Assembly (NCBI GenBank): GCA_000091205.1
Contig: AP006493.2
From: Cyanidioschyzon merolae
Lineage: Eukaryota
Direction: 5' to 3' (one strand)
Length of the DNA stretch: 64,000 bases
Shown: positions 27,205-57,271 of the stretch, in pieces
Numbering within the stretch: position 1 is the first letter of the stretch
Layout of the letters: each line of letters opens with the position of its first letter
The notes under the pieces: generated by a model
The model's database searches: none
Seen by the model: the letters and a program-made list of their open reading frames with translations, nothing else
What the model was told of the DNA's origin: nothing
Position numbers and translations under genes: made by a program

Positions 27205-27452
27205 GAGGACGACAAACCGGGACCGGGTGGAACGCAAACGTACCGGCGTTGGCGAAGCGCGGCTTCTGGTGCGCTTTCCACCACGCGTCCTGGATACACC
27301 TGTGTCGGCGGACAGAGTCGAGTGCACTGGATAGAAGCTGTGTCGGTATGTTTGGATTGTTGGTGATTGTGGTGAACGGCGGGCTTTGCGGGTAGTTCTA
27401 CGAGTTGTTGCTTTTTTATCGACGGTTTTCAATACGCCGCTATCTCCGTAGT

Positions 27453-28629
27453 CCCTTGTTCTGATGCCAGCAGTGGACAGGTACGAACGATGGCAGCGAT
27501 ACCCAAGTGCCGATTGCTCTGCTTCCGGTGCTTATCGACGACGCATTCAATGGACCGGCAAAAGATGCGACCCGTGCTGCACTTGCCGTTCCCCATGTCC
27601 TATGCATCAAGCCTTGACGTACCGTTCGCAGTGCCGGCACTTGACTGCTTGCAGGGATTTTCATGCGTCTAGTACATGTCTCATTCTCCGCCGAGGCCTA
27701 CCCTGCGGTGCTCCAAGCCTGGCTACAGAGCGCTCCACTCGATACCCGCGTTCGATTTTCGCACCCAGTGCAGTGTCCTAGGAGCACGCGCTTCTTCCAG
27801 GCGATGCTCTCAGCGAGTACGCGATCCGCTGCATACGCAAGCGCATACTCTGGTAATCGATCGGGGGTTTGCGGACTCCGATGCCGTCCCTGATGACGAA
27901 ACGATCACAGCAACGAAAACAATGCAGCAAGTTGAGAAGTATCGATGCATCGAGGCTCCCGCAGTGCAACGCGGTGACGTACGCTCCACTCGAGGCGATT
28001 GCTCCAACGACGCTCGTTCGAGTCCGGGTCCCTCGTCGATGCAAACCGCAGAGACTGGAGTCTCCCGGTGCGTATACCGATCGATATATCTCGCTGTTGC
28101 GGAATGCCGTCTCGTTAACCGTCACGAAGCACAGAGGATTCGTCTTTCAAACGGGACTTATGATTGTTCGTGACAAGTCCGGACCACTTTGGGGCAGGCG
28201 CTTGCGGCCAGGTTACCAAACGACGTCGTCGATACTGGTCTTCATGGTCAGTCCAGCGGCGCGACTGGTATTGAAACAGATACATCCATGAACGATAATG
28301 TGTGATGCTCATTTGCAACACGTCAGGAACTGAGAAGCATTGGAGGCTGCAACGTAAGCACTGGGCAGTGGTATCGGGTATTCCAGGATCACGCTTGGTG
28401 GCGGGCGTTGTAACTCATCGTGATTCCAGTGTCGTACCGAATACTTGCGACAAAGCATCGCAGGTCCCGGTCCTGAACCAAGACCCAGAATCCTGAAACG
28501 AGGTATGCATCCGGCATTGCATATGATTTCTCCTCGAGTATCGAGACTGAGCATCCGAGAAAACGGCTGGTAAGATTTGAAGCCAGAATCACAGCGAGCA
28601 TTCCAGAGCTTCACTCTAATCTGAGACGC
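27453..28629 (+). repeat. Dispersed repeat family, copy A (~1.18 kb, 5'-truncated by ~125 bp relative to copies B and C).
   Basis: Near-identical to 31327-32638 and 55970-57271, with a handful of SNPs. Same orientation. No TIRs, LTR-like ends or target-site duplications are evident, and there is no convincing ORF. It abuts the 5' end of the DUF1640 gene. Confidence 0.85.
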
Positions 28630-28991
28630 TTATAGAACGCATTCGTATGCGTTCTAGATGCCCTAACTCCGGTACCAATCTCTGGAGCAGCTCCCGCACT
28701 CGGCAGCATTCCGAACGACACCATGATATCATGAAGCGAACTGGTGCTCGCCCGTTCGCTGCACTGCAGATCGTAAAGAGGCCCTCTTCCCTTCACCATC
28801 ACTGCGCGAGCAAGCAGGCACGTTCGGGCGAGCTCACCATCCACAGATCAACCGAACCGTTGTGGAGTGTGCTCATACGCGGAGCGACTGCATCCGACGC
28901 TTCCCAGGCTTGCGCGCTCGTCTCGGTATCGATGCCTCCGGGGATACCGCCAGCATCTGCTCCCGTCACTCACACAGATGATAACCTGTTT

Positions 28992-30974
28992 CTATGCCAA
29001 GCCAACAACATAATCTTCCTGATTCTTGTCCAGTTGTTGTAGGATGCTTTGTGCAATGTAGTCCGCTGCACCAGCTTGACCCATCACGAGCGCGGCTTGT
29101 TCCCGCAAAAACGCACATATCGACGCTCGCTGGGCGGTATCACGTAGCGCGCTGCAAACTCGGAGCACCGCCTTGGAGACTGCGTCGCCATGCTCTCGCT
29201 GCGGATCCGCGAGGATAACACTCGGGCCAAGGAGACGTCCTTGGGCCTCCCAGAAACCTCTTGTGAACTGAGGTCCTCTCCCCGGTGACGTGATCACTGG
29301 TTTACCCAAACCTACCGCCTGCTCTGTCGCAGTACCGGCACATGCGAACACCAGGTCGGCTCGCTGAAGACAAAGTTTCAGCGGATTTCCTGTCACCAGA
29401 GAAGATTCGCTAGACGATTGCGAACTCCAGAATCGGAGACGATGGCCGCCACTTGCGTACAGCATTTCACCAGTAGATTCTTGGGTAACATCAGCGCTAT
29501 CTCTGGATGCATCTTCCGTCGAGTGGTTTGTCGGATGCCAGCCGAGCTTTTGAGCGAGCCCGCCTAGACAAGCACAGTCCAGTGTAGAGGCAACGGGAAC
29601 CTCCAGCGAGAGCCGGATATCGTCAGCGTTCGTGAGCGCCTGCTCCAGCTCGCTCAGCATCCGTTCCCAGTTTCGATACGCCTCGGGGGCTCGCGAGCCC
29701 GGCAGCACCGCAACCACTAGGAAAGGCTCTGCGTCGTGCACCCGATGCGACTCGATATCCGCGGTTTCCGTTAGATCATCGAGCATGGGATTGAGTGCAT
29801 AGGGCGCCACTCGTGGAACATCTAAGCGCGATAGGTTGCGAGCCGTCAGCTGATCCCGAACGTAAACACCCGCAGTACCGAGACGCCGCATGAGCCAACG
29901 CTCCCACGGCAAATAGACGCTGGATCCTGTTAGGAGCGCTTCGAAAAGCCTCGCAAGTCGCCAGAAGAACGGAGCGCGCCAAATCCTATACCGACGATAC
30001 ATGAAGACTGCATATTGGACATCCAGAAGCAGCAGGCGCAGAAAGCGCCAGCAACCTTGGAGTCTCGCGTGCCAGCCGGGCGCCCTAGCCGCTGCACCCA
30101 GGCAAAAGCGAGACGCTTCGCTTGTGTTCAGGCCGTACACCCAGCGATCGCTGGTCCACCGATGAGGATACGGTTGCATAAATAACCATTCGCCGGCGGG
30201 ACTCTGAAGATAGAGGTCTGATTTTGCCGTCCCAATGAAGACGCCGTGTTGGACGCCGCTCTGGACTGCCAGGAAGAGCGGCCATACATCGCCGACCGCC
30301 AAGACGACGAAGCGCACCGACCGCAACATGTAAGCCGGCACCTGGGTGCTCTTCTCATGCAGCCAATATCGACTGCGCCTCCATTGTCCAATGACGATAC
30401 GAAAAAGACCTGCGGCGATATCGCGGAGCAATGCCCATGGTCGAGCGTAGATGAAGCCTCCACTCGGCAACGTTGCGCGAGGTTGCAGGAGACACAGACT
30501 GGGGACCCTGTTCGGCATCGCTGAGGCGTTGCTTGTCGCGGGCTCTTGATGCAGCTCGAGCGCCAGCTCTTGAGCGAGCCGCATATAGGCACTGCCAATG
30601 CCGACCAGCGGCAGCACATCCACGTGCAACCAAGACGAGGTATGGTGGTAGAGAGCGCGAAGTACCTGGGCAGCAACGAGGTCCTCTCCGTGTCCGTTAC
30701 TCAAACACAGCGCCACCGTGCCTTCAGGAGCGACCGCTTTCCCGTCGACATGGGCACCTGTCTGGGCTCGCAGCAGGTTTCCAGCAGCAGGTCGGGCTCG
30801 TCGCTTTGCAACCCGTTTCTGTGGCGGGTACGTCAAGTTTACGAACCGTCGAGGGGCATGTTCCAGCGGCTTGACCGACACCACCCGCCTCGACTGGCGC
30901 TGGACGGGCACTAGCCAGCCCGTCCCGAGCGAAGCACCTCTTCGGTGGCCTTCGAGTGTCCGGTGTGGACTCAT
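28992..30974 (-). CDS. Lipid-A-disaccharide synthase (LpxB)-like glycosyltransferase family 19 protein, 660 aa, with a long central insertion and an Arg-rich N-terminal extension.
   Basis: ATG at 30974. LpxB-type motifs: N-terminal LSNGHGEDLVAAQVLRAL (cf. VAGEASGD..GA.LI.AL), VLPGSRAPEAYRNWERMLSE (cf. LPGSRGAEVEMLS) and FACAGTATEQAVGLGKPVI (cf. ASGTAALE....CPMVV). Confidence 0.55.
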   Translation of the reverse strand: MSPHRTLEGHRRGASLGTGWLVPVQRQSRRVVSVKPLEHAPRRFVNLTYPPQKRVAKRRARPAAGNLLRAQTGAHVDGKAVAPEGTVALCLSNGHGEDLVAAQVLRALYHHTSSWLHVDVLPLVGIGSAYMRLAQELALELHQEPATSNASAMPNRVPSLCLLQPRATLPSGGFIYARPWALLRDIAAGLFRIVIGQWRRSRYWLHEKSTQVPAYMLRSVRFVVLAVGDVWPLFLAVQSGVQHGVFIGTAKSDLYLQSPAGEWLFMQPYPHRWTSDRWVYGLNTSEASRFCLGAAARAPGWHARLQGCWRFLRLLLLDVQYAVFMYRRYRIWRAPFFWRLARLFEALLTGSSVYLPWERWLMRRLGTAGVYVRDQLTARNLSRLDVPRVAPYALNPMLDDLTETADIESHRVHDAEPFLVVAVLPGSRAPEAYRNWERMLSELEQALTNADDIRLSLEVPVASTLDCACLGGLAQKLGWHPTNHSTEDASRDSADVTQESTGEMLYASGGHRLRFWSSQSSSESSLVTGNPLKLCLQRADLVFACAGTATEQAVGLGKPVITSPGRGPQFTRGFWEAQGRLLGPSVILADPQREHGDAVSKAVLRVCSALRDTAQRASICAFLREQAALVMGQAGAADYIAQSILQQLDKNQEDYVVGLA

Positions 30975-31326
30975 GGGACGCTACGGGCGCTCGGAAAGCT
31001 TGTTCGAGAAACGCACCCAGTCCAAGAGAGCCGACAGAGGCTCGTACCCGCCCGCTACCAGCCCTACCGCCCGCAACGCTGAGCTTGTCGGAAAACTGCC
31101 AAAGACCGTCGACTGCATGACGCAGCGGTGTCATGGGAACGTGGACTGGATACGATTGCGGAGCTTCTGGTATTCGTTCGGGTCAACGGGGACGATGGAC
31201 TTGAGGATCTGTAGAGTAGATTGAAGGAAGCCCAACTCGAGCGACGGGAGAGTCCAGCATCCTTGCACCGTACTGGTCGCTGTCTCGCAGACTCTTTGAT
31301 AAACTCATGCGATATTAGCGCAGGAT

Positions 31327-32638
31327 AAAACGGGTGCACTTGGGTAACTCGGGTGTACAGACTCCAGTTTGGGCTCTCTTTGCTCTGTCATAGACAGAAG
31401 CTTATGCAGGACGTTGCTTCTCCGGTATCCTCGTCTTCAAATACGACGGTATCTGGGGTGCCTTCAGGTCCCTTGTCAGCAGTGGACAGGTACGAACGAT
31501 GGCAGCGATACCCAAGTGCCGATTGCTCTGCTTCCGGTGCTTATCGACGACGCATTCAATGGACCGGCAAAAGATGCGACCCGTGCTGCACTTGCCGTTC
31601 CCCATGTCCTATGCATCAAGCCTTGACGTACCGTTCGCAGTGCCGGCACTTGACTGCTTGCAGGGATTTTCATGCGTCTAGTACATGTCTCATTCTCCGC
31701 CGAGGCCTACCCTGCGGTGCTCCAAGCCTGGCTACAGAGCGCTCCACTCGATACCCGCGTTCGATTTTCGCACCCAGTGCAGTGTCCTAGGAGCACGCGC
31801 TTCTTCCAGGCGATTCTCTCAGCGAGTACGCGATCCGCTGCATACGCAAGCGCATACTCTGGTAATCGATCGGGGGTTTGCGGACTCCGATGCCGTCCCT
31901 GATGACGAAACGATCACAGCAACGAAAACAATGCAGCAAGTTGAGAAGTATCGATGCATCGAGGCTCCCGCAGTGCAACGCGGTGACGTACGCTCCACTC
32001 GAGGCGATTGCTCCAACGACGCTCGTTCGAGTCCGGGTCCCTCGTCGATGCAAACCGCAGAGACTGGAGTCTCCCGGTGCGTATACCGATCGATATATCT
32101 CGCTGTTGCGGAATGCCGTCTCGTTAACCGCCACGAAGCACAGAGGATTCGTCTTTCAAACGGGACTTATGATTGTTCGTGACAAGTCCGGACCACTTTG
32201 GGGCAGGCGCTTGCGGCCAGGTTACCAAACGACGTCGTCGATACAGGTCTTCATGGTCAGTCCAGCGGCGCGACTGGTATTGAAACAGATACATCCATGA
32301 ACGATAATGTGTGATGCTCATTTGCAACACGTCAGGAACTGAGAAGCATTGGAGGCTGCAACGTAAGCACCGGGCAGTGGTATCGGGTATTCCAGGATCA
32401 CGCTTGGTGGCGGGCGTTGTAACTCATCCTGATTCCAGTGTCGTACCGAATACTTGCGACAAAGCATCGCAGGTCCCGGTCCTGAACCAAGACCCAGAAT
32501 CCTGAAACGAGGTATGCATCCGGCATTGCGTATGATTTCTCCTCGAGTATCGAGACTGAGCATCCGAGAAAACGGCTGGTAAGATTTGAAGCCAGAATCA
32601 CAGCGAGCATTCCAGAGCTTCACTCTAATCTGAGACGC
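31327..32638 (+). repeat. Dispersed repeat family, copy B (full length, ~1.31 kb).
   Basis: Near-identical to copies A and C. It lies between the LpxB-like gene start (~350 bp away) and the 3' end of the DHQD-SDH gene. Confidence 0.85.
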
Positions 32639-33126
32639 ATCTAGATCCTGAGCACATCCTTTCTGGCTCAGTGGCATGCGCCCAATCTGCGAGGACTTTC
32701 TCGAAAGCATTCGCTTTACGCCGTACTTCTTCATCACGTACTGATTAGAAACGGAGGCTGCGTCAAAAAGCGAGCGAGGTAGGCGCTCCGGGGTCCACGG
32801 ATCACAAGCCAAGCACCATGCATCCCGCATGACGACGTTACCTGCATCCGAGCATACAGATGCGCTATTGCAGGGCATCATGTCGCAGAGACGCATACAA
32901 GCTGCAGCGCATACCTGCAAGCGCTGGACGTGCTCTCTCGGACACTGTCCAACGGCGCCCCGGTCAAGCACTGCGGAACCAGGAAAGCATCCAAAATGCG
33001 CTATCCATTATGAATCTAGAAGCAGATCTGCACGACCTCGTCGAGGGCATCTTCTGATGCGCGTCAACGAAGTTGTTTCCGCTTTACATCCGAACCGACC
33101 GCTCTCTGTGTGGAACACGCGTACAG

Positions 33127-34755
33127 TCAGCGTCGGGCCAGCTGCCCAAGTTCCTGGAGTACAATGTTGCGCATCTCCTGTGCCGGGGCCCTCAAGCCCG
33201 TCCAGATGGTAAACTGGGCTGCGGCCTGTCGGACGAACATCTCGACCCCGTCCACTGTGAGACAACCTCGTCGCTTTGCCAGACTCAGAAGCCGCGTTTC
33301 TATTGGATTATAGACGGCGTCGAACACGAGGCAGTGCGGCTCCAGAATCTCCTCTGGAACCGGAACGACATTCACATCTGGATGCATGCCAATGGAGGTG
33401 GAATTCATCAGAATATCGATTCGCTCTCGGGTAGCAGGGTTCCTCTGCTGTTGACAAAAGTCCTCTAGTGAGAGCGCAACTAGCTCTGTCTTCCCGAAAG
33501 GACTCAAATCATTTGCGAGCGATCTTGCTCTTTCCAGGGTACGATTCACGATAGTGAGTTTGCCGCAGCCGCAGTGTACGACCCCGAAGGCGATCGCCCG
33601 TGCCGCACCACCGGCTCCCAGGAGGACGACATGGCGTCGCTGGAGTGCCGTCAAGCGAGCCTGCCCCTGTTCGATTCCGGGCATCAAGGTCTCGGATACT
33701 GCATCTACCGCTGCCTGCCAATCGGTGTTATAGCCCTTGCGTCGGCCCGTGAGCGGATCCACCACGATCGTATTCACTGCCCCGATCTGCTTCGCCACAT
33801 CATCCAATTCGTCCAGGCACTCCATGATGCGCTGCTTATGGGGAATGGTCACACTGGCCCCGCGCAAGCCAAACTGCGTCATGGTATCGAGAAACTTTTG
33901 CAACTTAGAGCCGTCCTGAACGAGAAAGGGAAGGTAGACGTGGTTCAGACGGCAGAGTCCAAAGGCGTGGTTATGGATCCGCGGGCTCATTGAATGCCTG
34001 ACGGGTGCCCCGATAACCCCATAGACTGTGGTATCAGGGTTCAGGCTATGGAAACGATAATGATCGATGAGTTCTTCGATCCGGAATTGACCCGGTGCAG
34101 ACGCCCGTGCCTCGCTCAGCGTTGTGAACGTCAGCATTGCAGGTCCAAACTTGGCGGCAAGAACTCGGCTGATCTGCCCATACTCTCCCATTCCTATAGC
34201 AATCGTAGGTTTGCTGCCAGCAGTGCGCTTCAGTAAGGCAAATAGTCGCGCGTTGTCGCACAAGTCGTGGCACATCATGGCGATCTTGCAAATATCAGCT
34301 CCGGTTGCCACGATTGCCGTGTAGATTTCAGCGAGCTCCGCTTCAGTTAATGGTCGCGTGAAGCTATGATAGGAGACGATGAGTCGTGGACGAGTGGATG
34401 CATCTTGGAGCTGGACGCTCTCCGGCATCCGAAACAGGTCCATGTTCGCGAGTTCGACGTCCACGTACTCAACGCCGTGTTGAACAGCGCGCTGCAACAG
34501 CCTCACTCGCTCGTGATCGTTCATATCGGATAAACCTCCCTCACAAACAGGACGATATGTGAAAACCATAGGCAGAGGCCGTTGATCTACTACCCGCTCC
34601 CAGGACTCCCCCTCGGCGAGGTAGTCGGCACGGAACTCGACGAGGTCAGCGCCGGCCCTTCGTGCCTCGTACATGTCGGCTATCGCTTCTTCTGCAGAGT
34701 TCGCTGTTATAGATGTACATATTAGACAGCGAATTCCTGCACCTGAAACAGGCAT
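33127..34755 (-). CDS. Bifunctional 3-dehydroquinate dehydratase (type I) / shikimate 5-dehydrogenase (plant-type DHQD-SDH), 542 aa.
   Basis: ATG at 34755-34753. N-terminal DHQase-I domain; C-terminal SDH domain with GVIGAPVRHSMSPRIHNHAF and the NADP-binding LLGAGGAARAIAFG. No obvious transit peptide before the DHQase domain. Confidence 0.85.
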   Translation of the reverse strand: MPVSGAGIRCLICTSITANSAEEAIADMYEARRAGADLVEFRADYLAEGESWERVVDQRPLPMVFTYRPVCEGGLSDMNDHERVRLLQRAVQHGVEYVDVELANMDLFRMPESVQLQDASTRPRLIVSYHSFTRPLTEAELAEIYTAIVATGADICKIAMMCHDLCDNARLFALLKRTAGSKPTIAIGMGEYGQISRVLAAKFGPAMLTFTTLSEARASAPGQFRIEELIDHYRFHSLNPDTTVYGVIGAPVRHSMSPRIHNHAFGLCRLNHVYLPFLVQDGSKLQKFLDTMTQFGLRGASVTIPHKQRIMECLDELDDVAKQIGAVNTIVVDPLTGRRKGYNTDWQAAVDAVSETLMPGIEQGQARLTALQRRHVVLLGAGGAARAIAFGVVHCGCGKLTIVNRTLERARSLANDLSPFGKTELVALSLEDFCQQQRNPATRERIDILMNSTSIGMHPDVNVVPVPEEILEPHCLVFDAVYNPIETRLLSLAKRRGCLTVDGVEMFVRQAAAQFTIWTGLRAPAQEMRNIVLQELGQLARR

Positions 34756-34864
34756 TAAGCGTCGTTATACCGGTGAACACACCAAGGTGTTCTGGAACTC
34801 GCAGATGTCGCGAGAGAGGCACACCTGGCGTGTGCTCAGCGTAGGCGCTGCTGGCCCGCCTCGT

Positions 34865-36699
34865 ATCCCAATGTGGGATCAGCAGCGGTACGAATGCTGA
34901 ATGCTGCGGGTGTTGTTCGACGGACAGTTTCTGGCTATCGAAAGCGTTGACGCTTTTAAGGGCTACTGTTCCGCTGTCCCGCCTCGTATCCCAATGTGGG
35001 ATCAGCAGCGGTACGAATGCTGAATGCTGCGGGTGTTGTTCGACGGACAGTTTCTGGCTATCGAAAGCGTTGACGCTTTCAAGGGCTACTGTTCCGCTGT
35101 CCCGCCTCGTATCCCAATGTGGGATCAGCAGCGGTACGAATGCTGAATGCTGCGGGTGTTGTTCGACGGACAGTTTCTGGCTATCGAAAGCGTTGACGCT
35201 TTCAAGGGCTACTGTTCCGCTGTCCCGCCTCGTATCCCAATGTGGGATCAGCAGCGGTACGAATGCTGAATGCTGCGGGTGTTGTTCGACGGACAGTTTC
35301 TGGCTATCGAAAGCGTTGACGCTTTTAAGGGCTACTGTTCCGCTGTCCCGCCTCGTATCCCAATGTGGGATCAGCAGCGGTACGAATGCCGAATGCTGCG
35401 GGTGTTGTTCGACGGACAGTTTCTGGCTATCGAAAGCGTTGACGCTTTCAAGGGCTACTGTTCCGCTGTCCCGCCTCGTATCCCAATGTGGGATCAGCAG
35501 CGGTACGAATGCCGAATGCTGCGGGTGTTGTTCGACGGACAGTTTCTGGCTATCGAAAGCGTTGACGCTTTCAAGGGCTACTGTTCCGCTGTCCCGCCTC
35601 GTATCCCAATGTGGGATCAGCAGCGGTACGAATGCCGAATGCTGCGGGTGTTGTTCGACGGACAGTTTCTGGCTATCGAAAGCGTTGACGCTTTCAAGGG
35701 CTACTGTTCCGCTGTCCCGCCTCGTATCCCAATGTGGGATCAGCAGCGGTACGAATGCCGAATGCTGCGGGTGTTGTTCGACGGACAGTTTCTGGCTATC
35801 GAAAGCGTTGACGCTTTCAAGGGCTACTGTTCCGCTGTCCCGCCTCGTATCCCAATGTGGGATCAGCAGCGGTACGAATGCCGAATGCTGCGGGTGTTGT
35901 TCGACGGACAGTTTCTGGCTATCGAAAGCGTTGACGCTTTCAAGGGCTACTGTTCCGCTGTCCCGCCTCGTATCCCAATGTGGGATCAGCAGCGGTACGA
36001 ATGCTGAATGCTGCGGGTGTTGTTCGACGGACAGTTTCTGGCTATCGAAAGCGTTGACGCTTTCAAGGGCTACTGTTCCGCTGTCCCGCCTCGTATCCCA
36101 ATGTGGGATCAGCAGCGGTACGAATGCTGAATGCTGCGGGTGTTGTTCGACGGACAGTTTCTGGCTATCGAAAGCGTTGACGCTTTCAAGGGCTACTGTT
36201 CCGCTGTCCCGCCTCGTATCCCAATGTGGGATCAGCAGCGGTACGAATGCCGAATGCTGCGGGTGTTGTTCGACGGACAGTTTCTGGCTATCGAAAGCGT
36301 TGACGCTTTCAAGGGCTACTGTTCCGCTGTCCCGCCTCGTATCCCAATGTGGGATCAGCAGCGGTACGAATGCTGAATGCTGCGGGTGTTGTTCGACGGA
36401 CAGTTTCTGGCTATCGAAAGCGTTGACGCTTTCAAGGGCTACTGTTCCGCTGTCCCGCCTCGTATCCCAATGTGGGATCAGCAGCGGTACGAATGCCGAA
36501 TGCTGCGGGTGTTGTTCGACGGACAGTTTCTGGCTATCGAAAGCGTTGACGCTTTCAAGGGCTACTGTTCCGCTGTCCCGCCTCGTATCCCAATGTGGGA
36601 TCAGCAGCGGTACGAATGCTGAATGCTGCGGGTGTTGTTCGACGGACAGTTTCTGGCTATCGAAAGCGTTGACGCTTTCAAGGGCTACTGTTCCGCTGT
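34865..36699. repeat. Minisatellite: 123-bp unit in ~15 tandem copies, with two alternating SNP variants (gctgaatg/gccgaatg and ttttaag/tttcaag).
   Basis: Period 123 read directly (cccgcc starts at 34978, 35101, 35224, ...). Because 123 = 41 codons, all frames stay open, which produces the artefactual long ORFs 34947..36833, 35270..36007 and others. The array begins ~110 bp upstream of the DHQD-SDH ATG. Confidence 0.9.
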
Positions 36700-37613
36700 C
36701 CCGATCATATCAGGTGAGGACTATGATCGATACTGCGGGTTTGGAGCGCGTTTCCAGGGCCAAACAAGGGGCGTTCCGCACAAGCGGGACGAGTTGGACT
36801 TTTCTGGACGGTTGTCAAGGGCGTCGGCGTTGAGCGGTCGTACGAGTTTCTGCTTCGAGCTTGCAGAGGGAAAGCAGAATCGACATGCATATGTGACTGC
36901 GATGAGCAGATGCTTTTAGTGTTCAAAGCCGTTTGGCGAGTTGATGACGAGTTCAAGATCGTCGGTTGCAGCGTGCGCTGCTTCGTAGAGAGGAACAAGG
37001 ACACGAAAACCTCGAACTCGTTGTGGCGTGTCTGAAACCAATCGTGAAAGAAATCGCCAAGCATCGCTTCCAATGAGTAAATAATATATCGATACGAGAG
37101 GGTTCTGGTTAGCCTACGGATCGCTGTATGCTGTCTGCATGCGTGGGGCGCCTCTACAGCACCTATGAGAACGCGGCGATGCTCAGAAGCGAGTCCATGA
37201 CCTTGACATGACGCTGTGTACAGAGGACCTGAGGCTGTTCGTGAACAAGCTGCTGACTCTGGAATGCCCGTATCTCTTCAGTCTGGCGATAGATCGTTGA
37301 TCTGAACGTCCGAGTCCAAATCCTGTGTTCCAGGCACCGCAACTGGTTCAGTACCCGCAGTGCCCGCATCCCCGAGAGACATCATCGTATGTAGGACGTG
37401 GCGGGTGTCCCTGAACGCTTCTCGTTAACTAGACAACATGAGCGTTTGCGTTAGCCCCCCTACAAGAACATTTTAGCGAGTCTGGGTGGCGCCCAGAGCG
37501 CCCAGCTCGAATAATCTGCCTTTTGCGACAGCGTGGCAGCGGTGGATCCAACGCCCACTGGGTACCGGCTTCTGAAATCGCAAAACGTTTCCTCTGCGAG
37601 CGCGTTGCAATGG

Positions 37614-39175
37614 CTAGTCTTGTCCCCGGGGACATACATTCGCTTTCTCGTCGACGCTAGCGCGAGCGGCGCTTTCGCCGAGCGGCCACCCGGTACGCTG
37701 CGCAACCAGGTTCCAGACTCGTGTTCGAATGCGAGCGCTACATCCATCGGGACGCTCAACAAAACGGTAGACCAGACGCTTGATTTTGAACGACTGCTGA
37801 TAACGCCATTGTCGCGCCCATTCGCTGAATACCTCTCGAACTGATGACGCATCAGGTGGATCTCGAAATACTCCCTGTTGACCGACAGTTGGCCGCTGTG
37901 GCAAAGACCCCGCTGCTGGTATTCGTAAAGCGTCGCGATCATCAGCCAGACCGTCCGTTGCCGTATGACGACCCGGGTATGGATGCTGGACTCCATCCAC
38001 AGTGATATATTCGGCTTCTTGGATATGAAGTAGGCGCATGAGGCCCGCAAAGAATCGATCAACGGGGGTATGCGCTCGACCTGTTCGCAAGATGGCGTGC
38101 CGCAGCTCAGCAGCTGCGTTAATGAGCGTATCACCGAGCGTCCCGCAGCGGCGTGGCTCAAAGTCGGCGGCGACCCAGACAGCGAACAAGAGCTCGATTG
38201 TCGTTCCCAGATACGAGAGGAGATATTCGTCATCTGTCTGGGGATTCTGCTCAGAACTCCGTTTCAAACGCCGCCAGAAGTGTGCAAACAACTGCCACAG
38301 GCGACTAGCGAGGTGAGAAGGAAGCGGACCTTCGCGCGCCGCCACGGCTGCTGCCGTCACCGCTCCAGGCGCGATACCAACGAGCATTGCCAACGCCATG
38401 CGGATACAGGGACTCTTCAGCGGCTGGCGTCGAATACATCGCACGAGCACACCAATCACGATATCGACAAGTGTGCAACGGTCTGCATCGAGGCTGGTCT
38501 CGCGGTACCATGTAACGGGCTGCTCAAGGACGTGGCTCGCAAGCGCTCGAGACCAGCCCTCATCCTCAGTGAGCAGAAGAAGCGTTGCGAGTCGCAACTC
38601 CGTGACGTCTACCGAACTCTCTACGTAGAGCAAGCGCAGCAGCGTTAGCAGAAAGATCTCGGGATCCGTTCGGACGGCCAAGTAGCGCCGCCAATGCTCC
38701 GCGGAATCATACGTTAAAAAATAGAACAAGTACGAGCCTTCTGGATAATGGAGCCACCAAACGCATACATCATGCAGGTTGGATAGCGTCAGCGGCTGCA
38801 CTGAATGCAGCCCAGTCTGCACCGCATCGTTGCCAAAGTCCGCAGCAGCGCCAGCAGCAGCTGTTGTTGTTATTGTTGTTCGTTGATGCTCGCTGTTCGC
38901 ATCAACAACGGCTGGGAGCGTTTCGCAGGAGGTACGCGCAAGCACACCAGCGAGTGCCTGGCGAAATGGTTGACCGGCTCTCTGATTTGGAAACAGCGGC
39001 TGCGCTAGCTCGTCTGGATCGTCAGTCACGAGCGATAACAGGGTTAGCAAGAGCCCCATGCATACCACAGTTTTCCGAGCGATTGGATCCTCCGGTAGTG
39101 CACTCGATCGATGCATATGCAGCGTTCCAGCTGGTGCAATGGCTTCGGCTGCTCGAGAATGCATCCTCGAGGGGC

Positions 39176-39207
<32 letters not shown>

Positions 39208-46160: not shown

Positions 46161-48279
46161 CAAGTGGCGGCTTTCGAGCTGGACTCGAAATCCAGGTCCA
46201 TTCAAGAATCGTCCATATCCTGTTATGGAACGGAATCGTTTGCAAGTGGAAGTCGACTGCACTCGCCGTGTCTGAATGGGCCCCGGCGGCGAGCCGGCAC
46301 GTACATCGACAAAACGCGTGCCACAGGTTGGATCACTCGGACACGAGTTGTTCTGGGCACCTTTTCGTGGCTTTCGCTGAGATGCATCTTTCGGGAGTCG
46401 TTGGAGCGCTCGCACTCCACCGATTTACCGCAGCATCCACTACAGGGCAGCGCCGGGCGCTTTCGTATTCCAGCACTGGTTTGCGTGGCTGGTTCGGACA
46501 GGCAAGTAGAACGCGAATCTCGGCGACGTCTGCAAGTCAGCTCGAGGCGTATCGACAGCGTCCAGCGGGGAGGCAGTTGATGACGCGCGCGACTGGCACG
46601 CCCGGGCTACTACCCGGGCTCATCGTCATCGACCGTACACCACAGAGCGATCGATCTTCGAATCATTGATTGGAATTCTGGCCCGTATTCGTCGCCTGTT
46701 GACCGTAAGAAATGCGATCTCCAAAGAATTAGCAGGGAGCTGTGTTCATATGCATCGATTGGAGACCATACATCCATGTGTGAAGAAAATGGAACGGGTA
46801 TACGTTCCTAACTCGGACGTAAAAACCAGATATCGGGGTTTGCTTTCCACGACGATCAAGAGAAGCCTCTGCGAAATTTTTCTATGACTGCTTGCTTTTT
46901 TCCTCGTTATCTCCGGTTTCAGTGACGCGGGTCTCTCCGTTTTCCCGCAGTTCTGTTATCAGCAGTGCATGGATGGGTGATGAGGATGACGGTGATTACG
47001 GCAGCGTTCAAGTTCCAACTGTGCTGCGTCCGGCTATTATCAACGCGCGCACTGCATAGACGGTTGCTGTGATCGACGCTGTCCTTTACATTTTCATTCT
47101 CTACATTTCCATGCTCGGTGCGCGCTTCGTAGCAGTGACTCCGGAGTTTGGTCAGGTGTTATCGTATGCTCATTACTCCGTCTTCGCCGCCGAGAGCTGC
47201 CCAGTGGTGCATGAACGATTGCTACATGGCGCGGTACGTGGCCTTGACGAGTACCGCTGGCGGTCGTCGATGCCCTCCTCCGTTTCCCGCGCCTAGCACG
47301 ATACCTTAGGATCACGGGCTTCTTCCGGGTGTATTCCCTTGGCGAGTACGCTGCCCCATTCAATAGCAGGTTTCGGAACGATATGTTGTCTAGAAGAAAA
47401 TAAGCATCGGAATGAAAATCTGCGCTGAGGAACGCAATTTCAGAATTTCGAACGGTCGACGCTCCGTTCTTGCGAAACGGTGACGCACGCTTCTCTCGAA
47501 TCGATTTCGGTGATGCCTCAAGTCCGAATCCAGGTCTCGTTTCCACGCGAGCAGCAGAGACGGGAGCATCTGCGCGCAAATCCCAGGAGAGGTATCATGT
47601 GTGTTCGGAATGCTGTTTCGTCGATGACCGGAGAGAGAAGCGAATTTGTCTTTGAAACAGAGTGAATTATTTGATGGGATAAGATTTGTGAACATTCAGC
47701 GTGGGCCAGTGAACAAATCGACAAGCGATGCCAACGAGTTGCCTAGAAACCGAATGATCGACAACCAGAACATTGCATAACACGGGCATGATACACGTAT
47801 GGCAAGGAGAAGCATCCGGGTTTTCACGAACGAGTTGGATCATCATATCGCTTCCATGACCCAGCCTTTTGTTAAACAACGTCAGGAATTATCTTGATTC
47901 TGGTGACGCAACGAGCTTCAGTATCAAAGAGTGGAAGGACCCGCTCCGGATAGACGACCGAGAACCCGACCAATATCAATGCATCTGTAAGCCCATGTTA
48001 GCGCAGTCTGGATCCGCAGGCGGTGCATCAAAGGAAACGTGCTGCGTAAACAGGACGTAGAGGAACAGATCGCCCAGTTCAGCGTACCCGAATCATCTGT
48101 CCCGAATATACCTATTTAGCGTCTTAGCGAACCAAAAGGACTTGTAGGTATTTTACTGGAAAAACTAGCCATTCGCGCGGCGATGCTCGGCGATCGCGTC
48201 CTGCGCTGGCGCCGCCCCTGCCAATCCTACTACTTCGCCATCCAGCCTGCTTCTCTGCTTTCAGCCTATCGCTGCGCCC

Positions 48280-48720
48280 ATGCCCCGTATCAGGAAAGGC
48301 TTAGCCAAGACAAAGGCAGTGGCCAAGGTAGTTCGATCGGGATCCACTCCAAAAATCCTGGCCAAGGCCCACGAGAAAGTGCGTTTCAGAAAGCCGAAGA
48401 CGCGAAAACTCGCACGAGCGCCCAAGTACCCTCGCAAGTCTGCGCCTGCGACGCCGTGGATCGATGAGTTCGGCGTTATTAAACACCCACTGACGACGGA
48501 GAGCGCAATGAAACTAATGGAAGATCACAATACGCTGGTGTTTATTGTAGACGTTAGGTCTGACAAGCGGAAAATTCGTCAAGCGGTCGCGAAGCTCTAC
48601 GGTGTTCAAGCGAGCAAAGTGAACACGCTCATTCGTCCCGACGGGAAGAAGAAGGCGTTCGTTCGATTGGCTGCCAACTACGACGCACTTGATGTTGCGA
48701 ATAAGATCGGAATAATCTAA
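48280..48720 (+). CDS. RPL23A: 60S ribosomal protein L23a (uL23; yeast L25), 146 aa.
   Basis: ATG at 48280. Lys-rich N-terminus and a conserved C-terminus [22 protein letters not shown], typical of eukaryotic L23a. Confidence 0.85.
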
Positions 48721-51156: not shown

Positions 51157-52283
51157 GGCGGGTCACGCTGCTGGCCTAGAGTGGTGCCTCTGCGAAACCG
51201 TTCTACACAAGTGCTCGTCTTCAATGCGCCGCACACGTGTGCGATGAACCCGAACGGGTACACGCAACGCGAAGAGCTCGAGCGCCCGTCGCCAGATCTA
51301 CACACGCGGGCAAGTAAAGATGCACACCCACCGGCTGCAGTGCCTTGAGGCAAAGGATTGCGCTATGCTCGTGGACACCGTACTGCCCGATCGTCTGCCA
51401 GTCAGTCCTAGTCCCAGAACTGCTCTGCCCTGACGACTAGGCTCGATACCGGTAAAGAGGCACAAGCGTCAGGGGGCGTCAGCACCTCGACAGTGCGCCT
51501 CATGGTCTGGGTTTCCAATGGGACAAATATTGAATTTTCTATATGTTTATGGACTCTTCTCGATGCACGCCAGACCCTGTGCCGCTTTTTATACCAACGC
51601 GTGGATCGTCGCTACGAGCCGCGGAAACGCCTTTCCCAACGAAGGACTCCGTCCACGTGTATCTACCTTTGGTTATGCGTCTATCGAAGGTTTGTGATGC
51701 GTTTCCAGGGGGTCAACCCTGGAAACGGCAGCAAGAGCGCCGGCTGCAACTGGCGCTCGAGTGGAGAGCTCGTCTATCGAGGAACGGTGTCCGCGCGGCA
51801 TCGCCTGGTACCCCGTGACGGCATCTGCGAGTTCGTTGCAAACATACCAACACTGCAGACCAGGAGGCGTCCAAAATGTCAGGATCATCTCATGCGCGGC
51901 CTGCCCGAAGCCGAACATTGACGCACATGATGCTACAGCTCCATGCCAAACTACAAGTTGTCAGGATACGGCACCCAGATTCGCCCGCGTGATCCACATG
52001 GGCGCTACGCAGTACCCGATTCCAGGGATGCAACGATGTCTTCCATTCCTCGATCAGCGATGCCGAGCTGGACATGCGGCACAATGCACGTCTGCGTACG
52101 CGACCTGCAGTCGTCACCTTGCACGCCACTTGCAGAGACAATGCTCTACAGACTGTTATTCCAGCGCTGGTTCTCGCCAAAGCTCTGCACCGGTCAATGA
52201 ACACCCGCTGTCCGTTCCGCAGCGAGACCCGCGAACCGCTGGTCATCTACGACGCTATCGCGTGCCGCAACATGTCCGCGCGC

Positions 52284-55200
52284 TCAGCGGCTGTGCGGGC
52301 GCCGCTGCGCATCCGGACCCGTCATCGACTCGTGGTACGCCTGCAACACGTGCTTGCCAAGTCCAGCGGGATCGCGTCGTAACAGGTCTTGAAAGGCAGC
52401 GGTTTCAATCACCTCCGCGAAATGGTGCGTGATGTACGCCAGGCAATACGCTTTGAGGCCGCCCATGCCGTCCTCACGTTGCGCGGCGATTTCCAAGACA
52501 AACGCAACATTTTCAGGACGTATGGCTCGTTCAACCAGCGCAACACAAAAATTCCGCAGCTCATCCAGACGCAGCATATCTGCCGTTCGCAAACATTCAA
52601 GCAGGAACCGACCATCACGCTCACTCGTCGATGCCACGGAAAGCATCGCACTAGCGTCCATCGCGTTATCGTGACAAGCGCGCCCACTAGCCCTGGCAGC
52701 GATGCGCGCATCGTGTACCGGCAACTCGCCCGTATACAAGTAGCGCAGCACTGCCTCAAATACCGGTGCCGATACATCCGGTAAATGGATCACGCGAGGC
52801 CATTCCCCGTGAAGCGACTCTCGTAGACCCGAGTGAAACATATCTGCAAAATACTCGGATCGAGCAGCCAGGATCACCCGGTGCGCGTAGAAAAGGCGGC
52901 ATCGTGAGGCGCGCTGCTGCCGCTGCCGCTGCTGCGTCGCCTCACGCGGGAACCCAGCGGCGCATTGCCCAGCGTTCATGGCGGCGGACACGTGGCGGGT
53001 GCGTGCGCTCGTCGCGCCTTGCACGCATGCATTGCTGGCGTCGATGCGATCGCATCGAGCGTCTACGGGCGACGCTGTGTGCGCTGTTGCCACAGCGGGC
53101 CCTGCGGGTTGATCCTCTTCGGGGAGCGCGTCCAGGGATTCGGGAACCTCGAAGATCACATCAGCAAGGGTCGGCTCGTGGAGTGCTTTTCCGAGCTCAG
53201 TGCAAAATCGACACGGTTGCAGGACGTCACCACGGTCGGTACCAAGACCATAAAATACGTACATATCTCCGAAGAAGCGATCTTTGGCTCTGTTTGTCCC
53301 GCCAAACAGATACATGGAACAGCGTAGCGGATCGCGGGGTGCCACCACAGCGGCGCTCGCCAGTTGCCTCGGATGCAGCTCGACGCGCACGCGCTCTGCC
53401 GAGGCCTGACCCAGAGACGCCTCCGTGAGCTCATCGAGTGCGATTCGCTGCCACATGTTCAGGTGAAAGTGGTATTTCCAAATATCTCGACTCAGGTCTG
53501 AGGAACGCAGCTCTGACGGGGTAGGTGACGTGTCTGCTGATACAGCGCTCGTCAATGCATGAGGCGGTAGCGAATGTTCGGGCCGCTCCGCAAGCACCGG
53601 CTGTGCGGCGCGCTGCGTGGCATCGAGGCGCACCTTGCCGCCGAAAACGTACATGGCACCGGCACCGGCGACCGCGCAGTGGCCGTGAACCGCCTGCGGT
53701 CCACCGCCGTGCATCAGCACCGGACAATGCCAGGACCAGGTGCATAAATTCAGCACAAAAAGATCAGAACATCCATAGTTGAGCTTGTTGCGATACTGAA
53801 AGCCCCCGAAAACATACATCGTATCGTCGTAGACAACTGCGGAATGCTTGCAGCGCCGATGTGGGTAATCGATCCCAGGGCGACCAGTTGCCATCGTCTC
53901 CTGTAGCGCACGTGGACAAAACCATTTGCCGGAACGCAGATCGCAGACAGCAGTGGTGTTGACCTTGCGACGTCCATCGTAACCACCAAAAACGATCATC
54001 AAATGGCCATAGGTCACTGCCGAGTGCTCAGCACGCCCCGAGGTCGGGCCACCTTCGGGCAATGGGATCATCTGTACAGAAGTGGCGTGCTCGGGGGTTG
54101 CGCTGAGCCCAGCACCTATCGACGGATGTGGAGCTCGGAAGCTTTCGCGCCGCCCTGACCTGGATTGGCCGCGTTCGACCGCCCTGAATCGTACTTCAGA
54201 TCCCCTGACATTGGACGTACCTGTTGTTGTTGTTGCAGCAGCTGCTGCTGTTGGAACGCGAGCTAATGAGATGGATGTCGCCGCGCCTAGTGCTGCGTCA
54301 GAGGCGGTCTCGGTCGCACGGTGCTCGGCATGCCCGACATTCTCCAACAGTGCGCCGGGTGCTCGCGCCCTGCCCTGGCACGATACCAGCACCCATCGTC
54401 GCTCTGAATGCAAATCGAAGCGCCAAAGATCTCCCAGCACATGATTCTCCGCATCAAAGCCTCCGTAAACGTACAGGGATCCATCGAAGCTCACCATGGT
54501 CGCATGGCGTCGTGGTGCCGGCTGCTCGTCAGCAGCATTGCTCATCAAGCGCCAAAGACGAGTTTCGCCATCAAGTTCTATTAGATCGCAAAAATGCACC
54601 GTATATCTTTTTTGTCCATCTGTTGTAACCCGATAGAGTCCTGGTGGAGGCAAGGTGTCTGGGTCTGGTGTTCCAGTCGCGCTCCGATGCCCGCCAAAGA
54701 TGTACACGCGGTTGTCAACCGAAGCCATAGCGTGGCCAGCCCGGCCCGCACTAAGATAACGAAGGTTCCCAGACACCGGAATCGACTGGAAGCGCATTCG
54801 GGTTGCGTATCTGCTTCCGGAGCCACTGGAATCCATCGAGTCCTTCCCGTTTTCGGCGCCGAACGTGTTTCCTTCACAGGTTCGGTCAACTGCGGTGCCC
54901 GCAGGTCCTTGCTGGGGCGCTGCCGCCGCGCGCTCGACCACCTGTCGGTGCTGCGGCTGGCTGCCAGCGGCGTCTGTGTGATCACCGACAGAAGCGGATC
55001 GCTGGACGTCCGCGTCTACTGACGCCAGCGGTACCGCACGCGGCTGTACGCGTCCCGGTGCCGCAAACGTCGGTTCCTCCGGGCACTCCGTCGTGTGTGT
55101 GCACCCGGCTGCGCTTTTTTCAGTTCGGTCTGGTGCGTCCAACGTTCCCACTGTTTGTGAAGAAAACCCGACGCCGACTCCGACGCCAATGTGCCGCGAG

Positions 55201-55454
55201 CGCTTCACCCAGCTCTCGGGAGAGTGCTCGCAGCCGCCAGCGTTCCAGGCCACGTTTCCGTGTCGTGACTCGTAAGCTACGGGATCATGGGACTGACCGA
55301 GGTTCAAACGGTTCAGTGTCCTCGCATCCGTCACTAGACACGACGACGCTCTTGAACTGGAGTCCTCAGAACCCGAAACGTTTCCCTCAGAGCTCCCGGC
55401 CGTCGACGGTGGTGATGGTGCGTTTGACCGGTGTGCGCCCTTAGCGCGCTGCAT
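52284..55454 (-). CDS. Kelch-repeat (x6) plus C-terminal BTB/POZ-BACK protein (LZTR1-like domain order), ~1056 aa from the first ATG. The ORF is open to 55571 with TTG.
   Basis: Six Kelch blades (RVYIFGG, SLYVYGG, LMIVFGG, TMYVFGG, AMYVFGG, MYLFGG), followed by a BTB domain (CRLFYAHRVILAARSEYFADMFHSGL...VFEAVLRYLYTGEL) and a helical BACK-like tail. Confidence 0.75.
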   Translation of the reverse strand: MQRAKGAHRSNAPSPPSTAGSSEGNVSGSEDSSSRASSCLVTDARTLNRLNLGQSHDPVAYESRHGNVAWNAGGCEHSPESWVKRSRHIGVGVGVGFSSQTVGTLDAPDRTEKSAAGCTHTTECPEEPTFAAPGRVQPRAVPLASVDADVQRSASVGDHTDAAGSQPQHRQVVERAAAAPQQGPAGTAVDRTCEGNTFGAENGKDSMDSSGSGSRYATRMRFQSIPVSGNLRYLSAGRAGHAMASVDNRVYIFGGHRSATGTPDPDTLPPPGLYRVTTDGQKRYTVHFCDLIELDGETRLWRLMSNAADEQPAPRRHATMVSFDGSLYVYGGFDAENHVLGDLWRFDLHSERRWVLVSCQGRARAPGALLENVGHAEHRATETASDAALGAATSISLARVPTAAAAATTTTGTSNVRGSEVRFRAVERGQSRSGRRESFRAPHPSIGAGLSATPEHATSVQMIPLPEGGPTSGRAEHSAVTYGHLMIVFGGYDGRRKVNTTAVCDLRSGKWFCPRALQETMATGRPGIDYPHRRCKHSAVVYDDTMYVFGGFQYRNKLNYGCSDLFVLNLCTWSWHCPVLMHGGGPQAVHGHCAVAGAGAMYVFGGKVRLDATQRAAQPVLAERPEHSLPPHALTSAVSADTSPTPSELRSSDLSRDIWKYHFHLNMWQRIALDELTEASLGQASAERVRVELHPRQLASAAVVAPRDPLRCSMYLFGGTNRAKDRFFGDMYVFYGLGTDRGDVLQPCRFCTELGKALHEPTLADVIFEVPESLDALPEEDQPAGPAVATAHTASPVDARCDRIDASNACVQGATSARTRHVSAAMNAGQCAAGFPREATQQRQRQQRASRCRLFYAHRVILAARSEYFADMFHSGLRESLHGEWPRVIHLPDVSAPVFEAVLRYLYTGELPVHDARIAARASGRACHDNAMDASAMLSVASTSERDGRFLLECLRTADMLRLDELRNFCVALVERAIRPENVAFVLEIAAQREDGMGGLKAYCLAYITHHFAEVIETAAFQDLLRRDPAGLGKHVLQAYHESMTGPDAQRRPHSR

Positions 55455-55969
55455 CCGTAGACTCGTACAACAAGTACACGTCACTCCAGGCGCCTTAGTT
55501 GCGCTCGGGCGTGTGAAGCCGATGTAAACGTGTGCAGGATCCAAGCAATCGACAGTGTCGTCCGCTTCCAAAACGCGTTAGCAGTGCAGTTGCAGCGTCT
55601 ACGCAGTGCCGTTGCGTTCTTTTCGGTTTTCGACACGACGTTTCGATGCGCCATGGATTCCATCCTGCTGGACGGATACTGGTATTCGTGGAAGCGTTCA
55701 TCACCATGTTGCACTCTACTTCCAGGTTCCATGGACCGTAGTTCGTTTCGGAGGAACTGTTATCTTGTTGCTAGTTACTGGATAGTTTATGTTCGTTTTC
55801 CGCACCGTTGCAGCTAGTAAATGGTTTGTTTCTGGGCTTTTTTTTCTCGCGCAGCGAATCGATGCTATCGTATGCTTTTTAGGGACCAGTAGCGTCGCTG
55901 ATGCTGGTGGCAACCCATATCCATCGATCGATAAGGTTGTACACGTCTCAGACAAGAATGGAACGGGTG

Positions 55970-57271
55970 CACTTGGGTAACTCGGGTGTACAGACTCCAG
56001 TTTGGGCTCTCTTTGCTCTGTCATAGACAGAAGCTTATGCAGGACGTTGCTTCTCCGGTATCCTCGTCTTCAAATACGACGGTATCTGGGGTGCCTTCAG
56101 GTCCCTTGTCAGCAGTGGACAGGTACGAACGATGGCAGCGATACCCAAGTGCCGATTGCTCTGCTTCCGGTGCTTATCGACGACGCATTCAATGGACCGG
56201 CAAAAGATGCGACCCGTGCTGCACTTGCCGTTCCCCATGTCCTATGCATCAAGCCTTGACGTACCGTTCGCAGTGCCGGCACTTGACTGCTTGCAGGGAT
56301 TTTCATGCGTCTAGTACATGTCTCATTCTCCGCCGAGGCCTACCCTGCGGTGCTCCAAGCCTGGCTACAGAGCGCTCCACTCGATACCCGCGTTCGATTT
56401 TCGCACCCAGTGCAGTGTCCTAGGAGCACGCGCTTCTTCCAGGCGATTCTCTCAGCGAGTACGCGATCCGCTGCATACGCAAGCGCATACTCTGGTAATC
56501 GATCGGGGGTTTGCGGACTCCGATGCCGTCCCTGATGACGAAACGATCACAGCAGCGAAAACAATGCAGCAAGTTGAGAAGTATCGATGCATCGAGGCTC
56601 CCGCAGTGCAACGCGGTGACGTACGCTCCACTCGAAGCGATTGCTCCAACGACGCTCGTTCGAGTCCGGGTCCCTCGTCGATGCAAACCGCAGAGACTGG
56701 AGTCTCCCGGTGCGTATACCGATCGATGTATCTCGCTGTTGCGGAATGCCGTCTCGTTAACCGTCACGAAGCACAGAGGATTCGTCTTTCAAACGGGACC
56801 GATGATTGTTCGTGACAAGTCCGGTACACTTTGGGGCAGGCGCTTGCGGCCAGGTTACCAAACGACGTCGTCGATACAGGTCTTCATGGTCAGTCCAGCG
56901 GCGCGACTGGTATTGAAACAGATACATCCATGAACGATAATGTGTGATGCTCATTTGCAACACGTCAGGAACTGAGAAGCATTGGAGGCTGCAACGTAAG
57001 CACCGGGCAGTGGTATCGGGTATTCCAGGATCACGCTTGGTGGCGGGCGTTGTAACTCATCGTGATTCCAGTGTCGTACCGAATACTTGCGACAAAGCAT
57101 CGCAGGTCCCGGTCCTGAACCAAGACCCAGAATCCTGAAACGAGGTATGCATCCGGCATTGCATATGATTTCTCCTCGAGTGTCGAGACTGAGCATCCGA
57201 GAAAACGGCTGGTAAGATTTGAAGCCAGAATCACAGCGAGCATTCCAGAGCTTCACTCTAATCTGAGACGC
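55970..57271 (+). repeat. Dispersed repeat family, copy C (full length, ~1.30 kb).
   Basis: Near-identical to copies A and B. It starts ~400-500 bp upstream of the Kelch-BTB gene start. Confidence 0.85.

Follow-up and report, generated by a model that had tools for sequence, protein, structure and literature searches.

The 64,000-nt stretch of Cyanidioschyzon merolae contig AP006493.2 analyzed here (GenBank assembly GCA_000091205.1; hereafter the window) contains three near-identical copies, A, B and C, of a dispersed repeat of about 1.3 kb. This unit is very probably a dead relic of a DNA transposon of the IS630/Tc1-mariner superfamily and, as judged from the sequences, the near-identity of the three copies would result from gene conversion. 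We show that the unit belongs to an eight-copy family with a transposase remnant and terminal inverted repeats (TIRs), that it is absent from relatives, and that its copies display abrupt identity boundaries and, in copy A, a strain-specific excess of divergence. The copies presumably have no present function, and the family is a new, or at least an under-described, member of a known transposon class.

The repeat family, its transposase remnant and its ends

Blastn self-comparison and a repeat search of the window place the near-identical sequence, in the same orientation throughout, at 27465-28636 (A), 31329-32645 (B) and 55962-57271 (C), 2-12 nt away from the coordinates of an initial annotation that had rightly recognized these three copies. 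B (31329-32638) and C (55962-57271) align over 1310 gap-free nt with 11 substitutions (99.16% identity), A (27465-28636) and B (31474-32645) over 1172 nt at 99.23%, and A and C are 98.97% identical, i.e., any pair differs by 9-12 ungapped substitutions (98.97-99.23% identity), which is far above chance expectation. All three copies share one sharp right end; on the left, A seems to be 145 nt shorter. Copy C carries more private changes and is more distant from A and from B than these two, which lie 4 kb apart, are from one another. Three is not the full count, as a diverged fourth copy (D) lies within the very interval covered by the initial annotation, and A is not a shorter unit but a full-length one with a diverged left arm at 27297-27464. 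The elements are as follows, the strand being set by the transposase remnant:

27297-28632, minus strand: copy A, full element; the family hidden Markov model (HMM) aligns to 27309-28637, and the ends come from TIR alignment and pattern matches at 27295 and 28620-28634, as do the adjacent TA dinucleotides at 27295-27296 and 28633-28634
31315-32641, minus strand: copy B, full element with a degenerate left terminus; TA at 31313-31314 and 32642-32643
46771-48108, minus strand: copy D, old full-length paralogue (nhmmer E 3.5e-59 with B as query, HMM positions 1-1299); TA at 46769-46770 and 48109-48110
55942-57274, minus strand: copy C, full element with the best preserved TIRs; TA at 55940-55941
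Outside the window: copy E, same orientation as A-C
Outside the window: copy F, inverted
Outside the window: copy G, partial and inverted
Outside the window: copy H, inverted and cut at the edge of the retrieved sequence

Copy D is about 55% identical to B and C, has the same orientation, and ends about 170 nt upstream of the L23 ribosomal protein gene (48280-48720, plus strand), identified through synteny with the Ribosomal_L23 gene of a relative (contig L017). The four further diverged copies, E to H, were found by nhmmer within 7 kb of the ends of the window, in same-species contigs that extend it by 10 kb on the right side and by 6.5 kb on the left, bringing the family to at least eight copies in about 76 kb. 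All eight are intergenic. Pairwise identity is 0.54-0.58 between all lineages, a star-like pattern typical of an old burst that would have been followed by neutral decay, and the diverged copies share no conserved block longer than 10 nt. Mismatches between B and D lack 3-periodicity, their translated similarity is scattered over several frames, and codon-usage log-odds under a host model are below 0 in all six frames of the unit, compared with +0.10 to +0.14 for real genes; these periodicity, frame and codon-usage tests show the neutral decay of the copies only, being blind to an ancestral open reading frame (ORF).

The extant copies hold 3-8 stops per frame, and according to the initial annotation they had no consistent ORF in common. 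Nevertheless, a degenerate IS630-type transposase frame can be recovered on the minus strand of the family from a majority consensus of six lineages (B, D, E, F, G and H), in which two minus-strand frames have few stops. The consensus minus-strand frame matches Pfam DDE_3 at E 1.6e-3 and, uncorrected, the NCBIfam model transpos_IS630 at E 7.4e-5 (profile positions 78-212 of 299). With a single frameshift corrected, the IS630 match improves to E 3.3e-8 (profile positions 78-238 of 299), and that to DDE_3 to E 2.1e-7, with 31.3 bits against a Pfam cut-off of 28.6 bits. A tblastn search of the consensus frame against 7.3 Gb of plasmid sequence retrieved 171 records (best E 4e-4), and all annotated features under the matches listed are IS630-family transposases or IS630-related proteins.

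The consensus is 34% identical to the transposase of ISMno11 over 96 residues, and aligned to ISMno11 and Sinorhizobium IS630 it reads NPLLFVAIDETAF...YARRGSRL...GTWTRT.VIAAI...GSVDGSKF. Its motifs come in the order DETAF (first D), IMDNIAFHK (second D) and an SP..SP remnant. The second-D motif, lying past one frameshift, is GTCFIMDNIAFHKSS in the consensus against GDIVIMDNLGSHKSA in IS630; YSLRGSPRRSP*S of the consensus stands opposite WFLPPYSPDLNPIE of IS630 at DD34-35E spacing, and the SP..SP remnant aligns with LPPYSPDLNPIE, also correctly spaced. The first D is kept as DETAF in the consensus and in copy D and replaced by N in copy B, where IRDG is found in place of the IMDN of the consensus at the second D. 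Among the copies of the window, B has the best-kept remnant:

31787-32134, minus strand: ORF of copy B, both D motifs in one frame

This ORF reads VAVNETAF (first D replaced by N), then VIRDGIGVRK (second D), then YSLRESPGRS followed by a stop where the catalytic E should stand, and its motifs agree with the consensus and with the IS630 alignment.

At the family level the elements also have a TIR of about 24 nt, with the pattern CACCCGTnTCAGAW....AYGGAAC, contrary to the initial annotation, which saw neither terminal inverted repeats nor target-site duplications. The pattern occurs at the left ends and, reverse-complemented, at the right ends of C, E, F, G and H, and is degenerate in B and D. 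The TIRs of copy C (CGTCTCAGAcaAGAaTG versus CGTCTCAGAttAGAgTG) match at 15/17 positions, a score reached by 7/500 shuffles:

55942-55966, plus strand: left TIR of copy C, CACGTCTCAGACAAGAATGGAACGG (15/17 against the reverse complement of the right end, and family alignment)
57250-57274, minus strand: right TIR of copy C, reverse complement CAAGCGTCTCAGATTAGAGTGAAGC

TA lies directly beside the putative terminus in at least 8 of 13 ends of the family, where base composition would give an estimated 0.05 per end, and such TA dinucleotides are probably target duplications. The same annotation was right that there are no LTR-like TG...CA ends (LTR, long terminal repeat), none being present in the aligned ends. 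LTR, Helitron and non-LTR models were rejected, as there is no TG..CA, no 5'-TC..CTRR-3' with a hairpin, and no poly(A) tail.

Size, a single ORF, DDE motifs, TIRs and TA together make the unit fit the IS630/Tc1-mariner (ITm) superfamily. It resembles elements such as the alphaproteobacterial ISMno11 and Sinorhizobium IS630 in its length of about 1.3 kb, in one transposase gene filling most of the element, in its DE[TS] first-D, (I/V)MDN..HK second-D and SP..(N)P(IE) third motif at a spacing of about 35 residues, and in its short TIRs, TA at the ends and matches to Pfam DDE_3 and the NCBIfam IS630 model. In contrast with these elements, all copies seen here are dead and about 45% mutually diverged, and they reside in the nuclear genome of a eukaryote. 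Bacterial IS630 transposases are the best matches, and not eukaryotic mariner-like PUl-1; a closer tie to PUl-1, a eukaryotic Fanzor-associated mariner transposase, is unsupported (E 0.19). A viral origin was considered and rejected, no viral contig being matched by a two-block degenerate pattern of the unit. The initial annotation had ruled out a typical autonomous transposon or SINE, whereas the family can be classed as an IS630-type transposable element whose ends had been overlooked.

Several points weigh against this assignment. It is one of a six-lineage consensus, as no single extant copy is significant against transposase models: the copy B ORF alone matches Pfam DDE_3 at E 0.21, the raw ORFs of copy B have no Pfam match and, concatenated, none in a collection of 5.8 billion proteins that includes RNA-seq assemblies, and the minus-strand frames of D, E and F gave nothing relevant singly against NCBIfam. 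A phmmer search of the consensus against PDB sequences returned spurious Kelch-repeat and variant surface glycoprotein matches only. The third catalytic residue is not preserved, with a stop or S at the E position in the consensus and in B, and the frameshift correction was picked knowing the IS630 alignment, albeit in a frame that had reached E 7e-5 before any correction. TIR statistics are modest for each copy (45/500 shuffles reach the score of E and 43/500 that of F) and not significant in the shuffle test for A, B and D, and the exact termini are uncertain. Finally, the motif CATATGCATCGAT lies some 10-30 nt outside the presumed left ends of C and D, with similar sequence near E and F. 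The motif has 11 sites in the window at up to 2 mismatches, versus 1.5 expected (46747-46759, 55916-55928, 39107-39119 and eight more). It may reflect a preference for certain target sites, belong to the element itself, or simply be a common motif unrelated to it.

As a separate observation, the flank just past the right end of A (28637-28660) is a palindrome with a perfect 8-bp stem, GAACGCATtcgtATGCGTTC.

Near-identity of copies A, B and C

The initial annotation offered recent spread or gene conversion as the source of the near-identity, and the second part of this proposal agrees with both the abrupt identity boundaries and the excess divergence of one copy between strains. Copy A divides into two parts:

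27297-27464, minus strand: diverged left arm of A, apparently spared by conversion (168 nt; about 50% identical to B and 50-60% to D)
27465-28636, minus strand: putative conversion tract in A (99.2% identical to B)

Left of 27465, A and B align at 149 positions with an identity of 0.50; to the right, 1176 positions align at 0.99. This switch occurs at alignment column 181, within continuous homology; nhmmer with D alone extends copy A back to 27386. The seeming 5' truncation of A can thus be understood as a conversion boundary. Similarly, the 99% tract shared by B and C starts at AACGGG within the left TIR (31329), i.e., inside the element, and the outermost left ends differ, being TTAGCGCAGGATAA in B (outer 14 nt) and CACGTCTCAGACAAGAATGG in C (outer 20 nt).

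A metagenome contig from another strain (L020) differs from strain 10D at 25/793 positions of copy A (27844-28636; 3.15%), as opposed to 0.37-0.56% in the adjacent spacers, the LpxB-like coding sequence and the left end of B. Moreover, at 28158-28184 its copy A is a mosaic that carries variants of copy C of 10D. This strain-specific excess suggests that copy A was overwritten in at least one lineage since the strains split.

Taken together, the sequences argue that the near-identity of A, B and C is the product of ectopic gene conversion, and not of recent transposition, with C or B as the likely donor. For B and C, a point against this reading is that conversion is suggested only by their differing terminal 14-20 nt. 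The pattern resembles the concerted evolution of dispersed repeats in its sharp identity boundaries inside homologous elements, in the stronger homogenization of nearby copies (A and B, 4 kb apart) than of the more distant C, and in an orthologous copy that differs between strains more than its flanks. Concerted evolution by ectopic gene conversion is known for yeast Ty elements and duplicated genes, and C. merolae recombines homologous DNA efficiently. What differs here is the setting, a very compact haploid algal genome in which conversion would have acted on ancient, dead relics of transposons.

Recent transposition, in which a transposase encoded elsewhere would have mobilized a non-autonomous element in trans and A, B and C would be its young insertions, is an improbable alternative. 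It would account for the 99% identity of three copies lying within 30 kb, for the well-matched TIRs of copy C, and for the mostly private, star-like variants of A, B and C. However, the identity stops short of the termini: over the left 168 nt of A, only about 50% of positions agree with B, and B and C diverge at their outer left ends, where cut-and-paste transposition should leave the TIRs identical. Nor can a shared insertion account for the six-fold greater divergence of copy A of L020 relative to its flanks. In addition, a 20-mer of the right end of the unit occurs at seven loci in the JGI metagenome contigs scanned, all of them corresponding to A, B or C, and at no other junction. To the left, an 85-kb contig reaches about 120 nt past the left boundary of the converted tract of A before it stops; to the right, contigs of 46-51 kb begin in C. 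Since these long contigs assemble without further breaks, there are no more near-identical copies within roughly 165 kb.

A scenario of decay followed by conversion would therefore run as follows. The ancestor would have been a DDE element of about 1.33 kb, with TIRs of about 24 nt, probably TA duplications and a single transposase gene, that entered the intergenic DNA of the C. merolae lineage long ago. Most copies would then have decayed in a star-like manner to about 55% pairwise identity. Recent ectopic conversion may subsequently have overwritten the interiors of A, B and C with one sequence (tracts 27465-28636 in A and 31329 to about 32640 in B, C or B being the likely donor), so that their young look would be only apparent.

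Genomic context of the copies

The initial annotation placed each copy at the 5' end of a minus-strand gene. This is true for A, B and C, but the 3' end of the next gene is equally close, at 356, 482 and about 230 nt, respectively. The copies are also not divergently oriented from these genes, as had been stated: the transposase is read from the minus strand, and the elements therefore point the same way as their neighbors. Elsewhere in the family, E seems to occupy a spacer flanked by two convergent 3' ends, and would thus not be located 5' of a gene, while F, G and H have the inverse orientation. Intergenic spacers of C. merolae measure about 1.5-2 kb, as estimated from published genome size and gene number, and any intergenic insertion of 1.3 kb therefore abuts a gene end; the association with gene 5' ends is a trivial outcome of intergenic insertion in a compact genome. 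The main neighbors are:

28992-30974, minus strand: LpxB-like (TIGR03492-family) gene BAM80611, exact protein match; context and not part of the element
33127-34755, minus strand: dehydroquinase/shikimate dehydrogenase fusion BAM80612, exact protein match
51530-55836, minus strand: Kelch-BTB mRNA, as defined by Logan RNA-seq contigs that include adapter and poly(A) sequence

The two exact matches are to proteins of C. merolae 10D, the strain whose nuclear DNA makes up the window. A and B are direct repeats 4009 bp apart that bracket the LpxB-like gene. The Kelch-BTB mRNA has its 5' end at about 55803-55836 and its poly(A) site at about 51530, with a 3' untranslated region of about 750 nt; the start codon at 55457 and the stop at 52284 delimit a 1057-residue product. 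The RNA-seq contigs are 99.1-99.2% identical to 10D and hence from another strain. Copy C lies outside this mRNA, ending about 105-140 nt upstream of its 5' end, and an incidental promoter effect of C on Kelch-BTB is conceivable, with nothing in its support.

The order CAF1, Dymeclin, SDH, LpxB-like, CCDC90-like is kept in Cyanidiococcus yangmingshanensis (L015) and in one JGI genome, and that of Kelch-BTB, S5 and L23 in a third genome. No homolog of the unit is found in the syntenic spacers of these three relatives (L015, L016, L017), which measure 778-984 nt as opposed to 2152 and 1787 nt in C. merolae, i.e., they are about 0.8-1.4 kb shorter, a difference of roughly one element length. The unit is thus absent from the orthologous sites of relatives, and its insertion would be specific to the C. 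merolae lineage.

These data also bear on the idea of a shared regulatory module put forward in the initial annotation, here taken as functional non-coding DNA (a promoter or enhancer in common, or a gene for a long non-coding RNA) whose copies selection would keep identical. All copies are indeed intergenic, and C and D end close upstream of the Kelch-BTB mRNA and the L23 gene (about 105-140 and 170 nt). Yet the unit is missing from the syntenic spacers of the three relatives, though the same genes are present; the other copies are about 55% identical and lack conserved blocks longer than 10 nt; both orientations occur, with one copy in a convergent 3'-3' spacer; and no ORF of the unit appears in the above collection of 5.8 billion proteins. 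There is no RNA structure signal either: z-scores of minimum free energy in 200-nt windows of B and D average +0.1 to +0.6 on both strands, like shuffled controls, and the structural RNA search recommended with that idea yielded no Rfam family at gathering score, with chance-level matches only at E up to 10. Such a module is accordingly very improbable, and a promoter-associated or regulatory role is unsupported in view of the TIRs, TA ends, DDE remnant, both orientations and absence from relatives. The description as a non-autonomous element fits loosely, the copies being dead transposon relics. Telomerase RNA was considered as a further candidate and rejected, as no template complementary to the C. 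merolae telomere repeat AATGGGGGG (Nozaki 2007, PMC1955436) was seen in the unit.

An assembly artefact, i.e., duplicated or collapsed reference sequence, has nothing in its favor beyond the high identity and can be dismissed, since every copy is flanked by unique sequence, private substitutions distinguish the copies, and the same six junctions recur in contigs of at least five independent metagenomes and RNA/DNA runs. The independent hot-spring metagenome contigs that show these unique-to-repeat junctions are 99.3-99.6% identical to the window and typically end 80-270 nt inside a copy, in keeping with the effect of such a repeat on short-read assembly. One metagenome contig of 4022 nt (L009, JGI24721J44947_10043176) consists of one repeat copy plus the LpxB-like gene, a length near the A-to-B spacing of 4009 bp; it is expected to be an assembly-graph loop from collapse of the A and B repeats, and a 4-kb circle or a tandem duplication would look alike.

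Known repeats of C. merolae and meaning of the family

Two kinds of repeats described in this genome can be compared with the unit. Nozaki 2007 (PMC1955436) reported eight class II elements, most similar to transposases of bacterial transposons (E 0.071 to 6e-7), and the unit is likewise weakly similar to bacterial transposases; A-D may be among those eight loci. With at least eight members in about 76 kb, and provided that this stretch represents the genome at all, the family must exceed eight copies.

The same study also described a 3.2-kb repeat, present in 253 copies, whose ORF is related to WSV486. Bao & Jurka 2013 (PMC3627910) described about 150 copies of a 3169-bp Fanzor1 element, CMe-1A, with no TIRs and of unknown class, and Fanzor1 also in white spot syndrome virus. 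CMe-1A is presumably the WSV486 repeat of Nozaki. Like the unit, it is an old, diverged, interspersed intergenic repeat of this genome; in contrast, it measures about 3.2 kb, has no TIRs and is of unknown classification, whereas the unit is about 1.33 kb long and holds a DDE remnant and not a Fanzor ORF. Identity of the unit with CMe-1A is rejected, as nhmmer with the published consensus finds no similarity in any of the eight copies or in the unit consensus. The same search detects diverged CMe-1A fragments in the window:

6263-8042, plus strand: CMe-1A fragment
10856-11163, plus strand: CMe-1A fragment
11165-11414, plus strand: CMe-1A fragment
16376-16658, plus strand: CMe-1A fragment
55632-55762, plus strand: CMe-1A fragment (CMe-1A positions 5-131)

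These fragments account for several ORF-free gaps in the window, and the last of them lies between the Kelch-BTB start and copy C, about 180 nt from C. A better-preserved 3' half of CMe-1A (positions 2221-3169, E about 1e-216) lies just left of the window (L026, 15025-15973).

Downstream of the transposase, the unit consensus reads KCHRCERR...LCMKCVDNSRKQRNRNLNAAVNI, like the zinc ribbon and RuvC-III (RD.NAA.NI) of TnpB/Fanzor proteins. The match of this region to Pfam PF07282 is weak (E 0.068), as is that to residues 617-681 of the CMe-1 Fanzor (31% identity, E 0.03 in a 13-kb database). This hints at a tentative and rather unlikely reading, in which the family would be an internally deleted IS630/mariner-Fanzor1 chimera with a Fanzor-like last 400 nt or so by the 3' TIR. 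If this were true, an IS630-type transposase would be the missing mobilizing enzyme of the abundant, unclassified Fanzor1 elements CMe-1A and TE-N2_CMe, which lack TIRs and have no known transposase, and the DNA-transposon content of C. merolae would be substantially underestimated (at least eight copies in about 76 kb versus eight published).

Two other features of the window are unrelated to the family. A U2 snRNA-like gene (small nuclear RNA) lies at about 58873-58955 (plus strand); its 5' part corresponds to positions 33-84 of the Rfam U2 model, below the gathering score (20.8 bits, E 0.037), and a 76-nt stretch is 97% identical in a relative whose coding genes are only 67-78% identical. 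Directly upstream of the shikimate dehydrogenase gene, 34850-36703 is a tandem array of 15 units of 123 bp, 99% alike, that is open as a 628-residue ORF on the plus strand (34947-36833). It is collapsed to 1-3 units in metagenome contigs, and its spacer measures 2859 nt in C. merolae versus 971 nt for the orthologous one in Cyanidiococcus.

Returning to the repeat family as an IS630-type relic, an odd gene-associated repeat can be explained by ordinary causes, namely transposon relics and gene conversion. The C. merolae genome is commonly cited in textbooks as having eight class II elements and 0.7% transposons. The local density of this IS630-like family (at least eight copies in about 76 kb) suggests that its old transposable element content is probably under-annotated. 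At the strain level, the data would be evidence that conversion homogenizes dispersed repeats of 1.3 kb up to 28 kb apart in a haploid alga, which bears on the design of gene targeting and on the dating of transposable element activity from copy identity. Finally, the 99% identical direct repeats A and B predict recurrent deletion or duplication of the LpxB-like gene by unequal recombination.

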